A stretch of 64,000 nt of DNA. It comes from Octopus vulgaris (Eukaryota). Positions 31,885-57,762 of the stretch are shown in pieces (position 1 is the stretch's first letter; each line of letters opens with the position of its first letter). The notes below the pieces were generated by a model. It saw only the letters and a program-made list of their open reading frames with translations. It searched no databases and was not told where the DNA came from. The position numbers and the translations under genes were made by a program. The DNA lies in NCBI GenBank assembly GCA_951406725.2, contig OX597832.1:61132001-61196000 (forward strand), written 5' to 3'.

Positions 31885-32064
31885 GGAAGTTTACGAAAAT
31901 AAACAAAAGACGAAGGCAGGTGGTGTACAAACAAACGGCGTTGCCCCAGCATGGCCACAGCTCGTGAGCTGAAACTAGATGAAATGAAATGAAAAGTATA
32001 TATATAATGGAGAAATTGTACATTCTTTCTATGTTTTTAATAATGTTTTATATATATACATATG

Positions 32065-41500: not shown

Positions 41501-41558
41501 TATATGTTTCAGCCTTGAAGCTGCAGCTATGCTGGGGCGTCGCCAGTTAAAAGATATG

Positions 41559-41643
41559 TTCCTCAGGTGAAGATCGAACTCACGACCTTCAGATTTCGCT
41601 TTTGATTATGAGACTGATGCGCTGCCTACTGCGCTACCGAGGG
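41559..41643 (-). tRNA. tRNA-Met-CAT: Elongator tRNA-Met(CAT) gene or pseudogene with a 12-nt intron (41595-41606)
   Basis: CCCTCGG-TAGCGCAGTAGGCAGCGCA-TCAGT-CTCATA[ATCAAAAGCGAA]A-TCTGA-AGGTC-GTGAGTTCGATCTTCAC-CTGAGGA-A, then TTTT. A C1:A72 mismatch and C61>T suggest it may be defective. Confidence 0.82.
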
Positions 41644-41674
41644 CAACTATACATATATGTTTGTTCATTTACTT

Positions 41675-41791
41675 TTCCCAAGCAAGAACGTTACTGAGCG
41701 TGACGTCGACGTTTCAGCCAGTGAGGCCATCGTCGGACTGGCTGAAGCTTCGAAGTCACTGTCAGTAATATTTATATTCTTGGTTTGGGAA
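41675..41791. ncRNA. Long imperfect hairpin containing a hammerhead-like motif (minus strand, 41705-41739)
   Basis: Nested pairs TTCCCAA/TTGGGAA, CAAGAA/TTCTTG, TTACTGA/TCAGTAA, GTGAC/GTCAC, TTCAGCCAGT/ACTGGCTGAA; minus strand GUC-CGACGA-U-GGCC-UCACU-GGCU-GAAAC-GUC-GAC. Confidence 0.6.
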
Positions 41792-41929
41792 TAACAAAAT
41801 ACGTACTCTCCAAAATTATAGAGTAACCCATCAGATTAATGTAAAACTGTTTCTATTTTACCCAAACATAAATCAAACATTAACACACACACACACACAC
41901 ACACATTTAATCATAGTTTATATGTATAG

Positions 41930-42405
41930 GCGCAGGAGTGGCTGTGTTGTAAGTAGCTTGCTTACCAATCACATGGTTCTGGGTTCGGTCCCACTGCGTG
42001 GCACTTTGGGTAAGTGTCTTATATATATATATATAACTAAAATATATAACACCCTTATTTTTAGTTGTAAAAAATTATTACCTTTGTATGGTATTTTTTC
42101 CCTGGCCACTTGATAATATCGATATTTAAATATCGACATTATCCTTATTTATAAATATATATATACACATATGTATGTATGTATATGTGTGTATATGTGT
42201 GTCTGTGTTTGTCCCCCCAACATCACTTGACAACCGATGCTGGTGTGTTTACGTCCCCGTAACTTAGCAGTTCGGCAAAAGAGAACCTGATATGCTAAGT
42301 ACCAGGCTTACAAAGAATAAGTCATGGGGTCGATTTCATCGACTAAAAGGTGGTGCTCCAGCATGGCCACAGTCAACTGACTGAAACAAGCAAAAGAGTA
42401 AAAGA
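41930..42405 (+). mobile_element. SINE family B interrupted by an AT-rich insert (42020-42160)
   Basis: Head at 41930-42020, tail at 42200-42405. Confidence 0.85.
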
Positions 42406-57316: not shown

Positions 57317-57351
57317 GTTTCTGACGAAGAGCTCCACTCGAAACATTAAAT
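57317..57351 (+). ncRNA. Hammerhead motif, second mutated copy of the 15465-15499 family
   Basis: GUUU-CUGACGA-A-GAG-CUCCA-CUC-GAAAC-AUU-AAAU within homologous flanks. Confidence 0.6.
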
Positions 57352-57762
57352 CCCCCTTCTTTCTTTCCTTTCCTGAGCGTCCATTAACACTTTACTTGTT
57401 TCACGTCTATTTTCTTGCAGTGCTATAGAACGCTTCTACTAAATAAAGAAATCTTCCGTTGTTTTTCGCCGGTAAAGTTTATATTCCTCGCAGTGTGTAA
57501 CCTCTTGCTGAAAATAACTCAGTGCACGGTTCTTCGTTTCCTAAATGTCTCAACAGATTTCTCAAATTCTCAACTCGATCCCTCGTAATGCTTTTCAATT
57601 TCTTGCTTCTCCACCCTGATTTAAAAAAATGTTTCCTTTCAACATGTTCATTCACACTGGTTCAATATGTTGTTATGGGATGTTATATGGCAACTCCGAC
57701 TTCCGCGGTGCCGGAAATGGTCGTATCTGATTAGTTGAAATTCCCCCCCCACCAAAAAAAAA

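Follow-up and report, generated by a model that had tools for sequence, protein, structure and literature searches.

The locus examined here, in a 64,000-nt stretch of the Octopus vulgaris genome (hereafter the window), in all likelihood holds one end of a Hydra-like Penelope element, whose hammerhead is damaged and likely inactive, beside a decayed copy of a pre-tRNA-Met joined to a SINE tail. We consider it most likely that the two arrived as separate insertions at an AT-rich site. A preliminary description of this DNA had seen in them instead one unit, a tRNA and hammerhead ribozyme composite, and had likened the hairpin to a retrozyme. Much of what that description recorded was confirmed. 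The long hairpin is real (-51.3 kcal/mol, z -7.42, with 0 of 200 shuffles as good), and the hammerhead-like motif that was quoted is present on the minus strand at 41739-41705. As claimed, 31 nt separate the hairpin from an intron-bearing tRNA-Met(CAT) that is followed by a T-run, and the tail at 41544-41506 resembles 31937-31975 (74% over 39 nt). ARAGORN misses this tRNA without its intron option and detects it when introns are allowed; a general repeat search of the window gave output dominated by microsatellites. At the gathering score, Rfam found nothing in the window but the tRNA, and hence no hammerhead.

The features are collected in Table 1. The 88-nt tail of the element runs on from the hairpin on the side away from the tRNA. 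A possible target-site duplication of 9 nt, of low complexity, encloses the tRNA and its tail and leaves the hairpin outside. There is one copy only of the hairpin family within the window. More SINE copies lie on both sides of the locus, at 41451-41170 (minus strand) and 41930-42400.

Table 1. Features of the locus, by position in the window
Feature	Position	Strand	Remark
Hairpin	41675-41791		head of a longer element, not the whole element
Head-to-head pLTR stump with inverted arm, direct arm and one-sided tail, assigned to a Hydra-like Penelope element	41667..41883	+	
Inverted arm	41667..41740	-	minus strand is the ribozyme-sense pLTR
Degenerate type I hammerhead	41697..41741	-	
Hammerhead stem I, 5' strand	41741-41737	-	3' strand of stem I mutated
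Hammerhead core	41736-41730	-	C at position 4
Hammerhead helix II	41728-41716	-	
Hammerhead helix III	41712-41703	-	palindromic
Hammerhead cut site	after 41702	-	GUC triplet is 41704-41702
Microhomology where the two arms meet	41737..41740	+	4 nt
One-sided element tail	41796..41883	+	start approximate; then CA microsatellite
Possible target-site duplication of tRNA and tail unit, upstream copy	41654..41662	-	9 nt, low complexity
tRNA-Met(CAT), decayed, intron-bearing copy	41559..41643	-	intron 12 nt
Pre-tRNA 3' trailer and T-run	41549..41558	-	
SINE 3' tail piece	41506..41548	-	joined at the T-run
Possible target-site duplication, downstream copy	41501..41509	-	overlaps tail end; then TA/GT microsatellite

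The hairpin belongs to a large family. Searches were run against the 2.8-Gb assembly. With the hairpin as query, 46 matches were obtained in the 40 candidates scored; 1273 candidates came from the adjoining 93 nt and 3897 from a well-kept copy. Since 313 kb of unselected flank contains 4 copies, the family would be of the order of ten thousand copies, of which thousands are listed as candidates. The unit is about 216 to 217 nt long and has a palindromic head with a tail of 88 nt attached on one side only; the window element is 84% like the family majority sequence. In 58 two-armed copies, the central gap is absent in 30 and measures 1 to 33 nt in 28 (11 to 12 nt, as in the window, in 11 of the 28), and these variable gaps show that the arms join at varying points. 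A microsatellite adjoins the element ends in 41/68 and 59/81 cases, compared to a background of 17%, and a TA tract lies within 20 nt of the ends in 27/68 and 38/81, compared to 9%. For the counts given below, duplicate loci were collapsed (121 to 109), L153 and L154 were counted once, and loci selected by pattern were excluded from the tallies of 82 and 38 copies. The family may already be listed in the supplements of the papers cited here.

The nature of the parent element comes from copies without the inverted arm. Five such copies have a common upstream sequence in its place, and three steps of extension upstream lead into a broken ORF with pieces resembling reverse transcriptase (RT) and the GIY-YIG endonuclease. 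Pfam, homolog, atlas and PDB searches with these parent fragments gave no match, and no intact parent copy was found. The identity was instead reached indirectly: relatives of an unrelated Penelope-like element (PLE) fragment in the flank of L005 yielded 29 full-length proteins, and by tblastn 23 of the 30 upstream loci match these (best E 4e-48). Among the 29 proteins, which are relatives and not the family's own decayed fragments, RWK is found in 24, DKT in all 29 and CxCX5C in 26; the linker and endonuclease motifs overall are present in 26 to 28, and one of these relatives passes Pfam GIY-YIG. The family's own ORF fragments show the CxCX5C linker and the CxxC/E/N/CxH end. Five ORF-bearing loci end in the arm and tail of the hairpin family, and the long copies carry an inverted, 5'-truncated copy, placed at varying points, with the tail on one side only. 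The fragment in the L005 flank (L005:347-952, minus strand) is a 202-aa open stretch of a different and better-kept Hydra-like PLE.

Given these motifs and the tblastn matches, we assign the hairpin to the head-to-head pLTR end of a Hydra-like Penelope element. The Hydra clade of C-terminal EN+ PLEs, as described by Craig et al. 2021 (PMC8557442), has the same ORF with RT and GIY-YIG domains, the same CxCX5C linker and CxxC/E/N/CxH end, a hammerhead in the pLTR, and TA-type targets, listed there as (TA)n. The layout of an inverted 5' copy with a one-sided tail is described in that paper and in Arkhipova et al. 2013 (PMC3846280). The octopus family differs from the clade in its longer tail (about 88 nt, compared to 30 to 40), in a core that is most likely CCGACGA rather than canonical, and in being represented, among the copies found, by broken ones only. 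With the EN+ Penelope elements of PMC3846280 it further shares head-to-head pLTRs, a palindrome at the junction and solo pLTRs; here, however, the palindrome is nearly the whole insertion, and a favored fold point lies at core position 4. A foldback element of the MITE or Helitron type, copied from one fixed palindromic master, was rejected in view of the copies without an inverted arm and of the coding parent. The retrozyme reading does not survive either, as the hairpin is a PLE end, with a single inverted pair where a retrozyme would repeat its hammerhead-bearing units in tandem, head to tail. The non-LTR retrozymes of animals (bioRxiv 10.64898/2026.07.22.740005) do contain a type I hammerhead related to that of PLE pLTRs, but as tandem units, whereas the inverted pair here has a coding parent.

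That leaves the ribozyme itself. The majority sequence of parent-type copies forms 12/12 pairs of the type I hammerhead fold: stem I (5 bp) and the core come first, then an unpaired U, helix II (4 bp), GAA, a palindromic helix III of 10 nt and GUC. In the minimal and variant type I hammerheads that Cervera and de la Pena 2014 (PMC4209133) describe from PLEs, stem I is likewise short, the base after A9 is unpaired, the G10.1-C11.1 pair is present and helix III is palindromic, and these ribozymes occur in pairs on opposite strands; the octopus family differs in having C at position 4, and the window copy in its loss of stem I. Of 30 parent-type copies, 14 have T at position 4 and 13 have C. The dinucleotides there (TG 14, CG 7, CA 6) match those of a neighboring CpG (13, 9 and 5), which makes C the simplest ancestral base. 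C thus looks ancestral in the family, and U at this position fits CpG decay. These counts led us to reject U as the simplest ancestor; a minority subfamily with U is possible. A tally of the central base over 38 two-armed copies (C 16, G 8, T 9, A 5) agrees with C, and so does the consensus of loose ends from two other sequencing runs. The expectation that a family consensus would restore CUGACGA was therefore not borne out: the strict core is present in only 5/30 parent-type copies, and even a loose core in only 4/82 others.

The window copy is more damaged than this. It keeps GAA, A15.1-U16.1, G10.1-C11.1 and an NUH triplet (GUC), with helix II at 4/4 pairs and the palindromic helix III at 3/3 through a pairing-preserving double change. 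Measured against C3-U4-G5-A6-N7-G8-A9, its core fails at position 4, and only 2/5 pairs of stem I remain, compared to 5/5 in the family majority. To call it one base from a minimal hammerhead was thus too generous, since 3/5 stem I pairs are gone in addition to the C at position 4. The motif does descend from a hammerhead, as had been proposed; the way it was parsed has to be changed, with helix III as a 10-nt palindrome and the cut at the second GUC. We rejected the parse that uses the first GUC without loop III, a spelling found in just 3/82 copies. The direct arm of the window element is without the ribozyme core. Rfam searches of seven family loci at E<=10 gave no hammerhead family among the 150 of 173 matches listed.

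The preliminary description had pointed out that retrozyme RNAs fold into stable structures that sequester their hammerhead. Here the predicted folds favor the hairpin, at -50.6 kcal/mol, compared to -25.2 with the ribozyme helices forced. For the arm by itself, too, the first two predicted folds differ from the ribozyme. We conclude that the window hammerhead is damaged and likely inactive; a read-through RNA across it would be predicted to fold into the long hairpin and not to cleave. Elsewhere in the window, a complete, canonical hammerhead core is found in another repeat at 15495-15461 (minus strand), with a second copy of that repeat, decayed at helix III, at 57321-57352 (plus strand); this repeat is probably the end of a different PLE family.

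What, then, of a mobile composite, in which cleavage by the hammerhead frees an RNA with the pre-tRNA? The hammerhead-derived motif does share the strand of the tRNA, lies upstream of it and retains helix II as well as a helix III of 3 bp, and a second case with the same polarity exists at L146. In addition, hammerheads with C at position 4 occur naturally, and this variant, though considerably less active, supported viroid infectivity (PMC3088659). Against this, the window and L146 have no common junction, and the hairpin is found without tRNA-Met at 106 of 109 distinct family loci, so that hairpin, tRNA and tail are not one family. Stem I is broken, the hairpin is favored by 25 kcal/mol, and the tRNA is without pair 1-72 and a B-box base. 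The cut had been placed about 64 nt upstream of the tRNA, and the family cut triplet gives 58 nt. Cleavage 58 to 64 nt upstream would fall outside a normal Pol III pre-tRNA. The preliminary description had itself named beforehand two things that would count against the composite, occurrence of the hairpin without the tRNA and a core not conserved in the family; both are what we found. We regard such a composite as extremely improbable.

The tRNA and the SINE-type tail, on the other hand, do belong together, as was originally claimed. Two pattern searches and one DNA match gave a set of 90 tRNA-Met loci, 35 of them in four clusters and 55 dispersed; all 55 were examined, including L209 and L219, where BLAST shows no tRNA. 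SINE sequence, whether from the head, the tail or the interior, follows at the T-run in 26/28 dispersed copies with a 3' end, the window among them, compared to 0/32 clustered genes. The introns and trailers of several of these siblings trace to different source genes, and their flanks are not shared. Likeness to the source gene ends at the transcript (for instance in L226, L158 and L206), with no more than about 4 nt of leader in common. For the window tRNA, no source gene could be assigned; a comparison by eye of its mature body with that of the commonest gene shows 5/73 positions changed, including the lost pair 1-72 and the last B-box base, and its intron is 12 nt long, compared to 21 to 22 nt in most tRNA-Met genes. 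An amplified tRNA-headed SINE would have one common junction, and here introns, trailers and SINE partners all vary. What the window and its 25 siblings have in common is a small RNA in sense orientation whose 3' end runs directly into part of a SINE or LINE. It seems likely, from these comparisons, that the window tRNA and tail are a chimeric pre-tRNA/SINE retrocopy of a known kind, made in one event.

It is of course conceivable that the tRNA was a solitary gene that decayed, and that the SINE tail and the hairpin inserted beside it later. T-runs can serve as LINE targets, and two solitary, intact tRNA-Met genes were found (L058 and L060). This is very unlikely, however, as 26/28 compared to 0/32 far exceeds what independent insertion would give, and as the siblings match their source genes over the transcript only. 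A test of target-site duplications in 11 units found none clear in most and one of 15 nt in L211, where it encloses the tRNA-Met and tail unit inside an unrelated palindrome, implying that these units insert on their own. The palindrome in question (L211:220-700) is 200 nt long and belongs to another family, with the unit in one arm.

Chimeras of this sort have been described elsewhere. In U6/LINE and U6/SINE chimeras (Doucet et al. 2015, PMC4476161) and in tRNA/LINE-1 chimeras (PMC13174262), too, a single insertion carries a small Pol III RNA 5' of retroelement sequence, which is from a LINE or, with U6, also from a SINE. What sets the present case apart is that the partner is a full-length, sense, intron-bearing pre-tRNA with its trailer; the human tRNA/LINE-1 chimeras are mostly antisense halves. 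Our literature search found no published description of octopus tRNA pseudogenes. Intron-bearing pre-tRNA-Met with SINE sequence at the T-run is seen at L045, L053, L040, L146, L153, L156-L159, L162, L163, L167, L168, L202, L204-L206, L208, L211, L212, L215, L222, L226, L227 and L230; the tail-type copies begin at a near-identical point, about 45 to 50 nt from the SINE end. There are also many dispersed 5' halves of tRNA-Met (L152, L155, L160, L161, L165, L166, L203, L216, L220, L223 and others), which end at or just within the intron and resemble tailless retropseudogenes. At L207 and L221, an antisense tRNA-like SINE head is joined to a tRNA-Met 5' fragment, with near-identical junctions in three copies. 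L153 and L154 (C4, 53 Mb apart) are identical over the 620 nt compared, reflecting either a recent duplication or an assembly duplicate.

Are the element and the tRNA linked? Besides the window, two of 54 dispersed tRNA-Met loci abut the same Penelope family, and the junctions are all different. In L146 (1393-1714), a full tRNA-Met lies about 12 nt from the same arm end with the polarity of the window; in L101 (1438-1634), a tRNA-Met 5' half is fused into the arm. A decayed tRNA-Met copy in L040 (1501-2035) has the same polarity at about 290 nt upstream. A rough model with few background copies predicts 0.06 to 0.19 abutting cases among the 54 loci and gives a P of 0.002 to 0.015 for at least two. 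Near the elements, SINE ends show an enrichment of about 2.3-fold (9 compared to 3.9), and the P just given spans the model with this factor and without it; for a five-fold hot spot, P rises to 0.04 to 0.06.

One can envision from this that the adjacency is causal, either because the Penelope family inserts just upstream of Pol III units or because a Penelope nick or palindrome captures pre-tRNA/SINE cDNA or becomes its target later on; the parts would still be dead passengers. L146, with the polarity and spacing of the window, the direct fusion in L101 and the case in L040 speak for such a link, as do the rough P, the chimera lying within another palindrome at L211 and two SINE heads that point away from an inverted-arm end at 9 to 13 nt. 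The three cases have three different geometries, however; even the window and L146 differ in intron, SINE partner and arm junction. Only 2/108 inverted-arm ends have a tRNA, both Met and one of them the window, and no family copy was found in the tRNA-Met gene clusters examined. The two SINE heads compare to about 0.5 expected, which is not significant, and the background rests on 3 to 4 copies. Nor is there a set distance upstream of tRNA genes, as there is for most insertions of Ty3/TRE5-type elements that target them. We consider a causal adjacency unlikely, whichever route is chosen. It is quite unlikely that pre-tRNA retrocopying has a mechanistic coupling to a Hydra-type family of thousands of copies, its hammerhead weakened by C at position 4, which repeatedly sets a hammerhead arm before a tRNA and so provides material from which tRNA-ribozyme SINEs could be built. 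For L101, we considered whether a ribozyme product had been ligated to the 5' exon of a tRNA by an RtcB-type enzyme, and rejected this, the join being inside the intron and on the wrong strand. The search of sequencing runs listed no RNA run with the sequence, and no contig from four runs bridges the junction of hairpin and spacer. The association of the element with tRNA-Met copies is weak and unexplained, in an otherwise ordinary locus, and no report of a link between PLEs and tRNAs was found in the titles and abstract openings of the literature searched.

Returning to separate insertions, we propose that a PLE reverse transcriptase laid down two short, opposed pLTR copies that were joined by microhomology to give the hairpin. 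At another time, a LINE reverse transcriptase would have copied a SINE 3' end and then, from its oligo-U end, an unspliced pre-tRNA-Met; passage onto the pre-tRNA may have been a move between templates or the copying of an RNA already ligated. Both kinds of insertion would favor TA-type microsatellites and hence collide.

Seemingly, the family amplified with C at core position 4, which fits the finding that PLE insertion in vitro does not need cleavage (PMC11167929). For this locus, the analysis accounts for a ribozyme-tRNA signal that was spurious and illustrates the way in which stumps of Penelope elements generate such signals. If the adjacency were causal, there would be a link between PLEs and tRNAs. 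SINEs have been proposed to originate when a tRNA head gains a LINE-recognized tail, a step that can be studied in the natural set of at least 26 separate junctions of pre-tRNA-Met and SINE.
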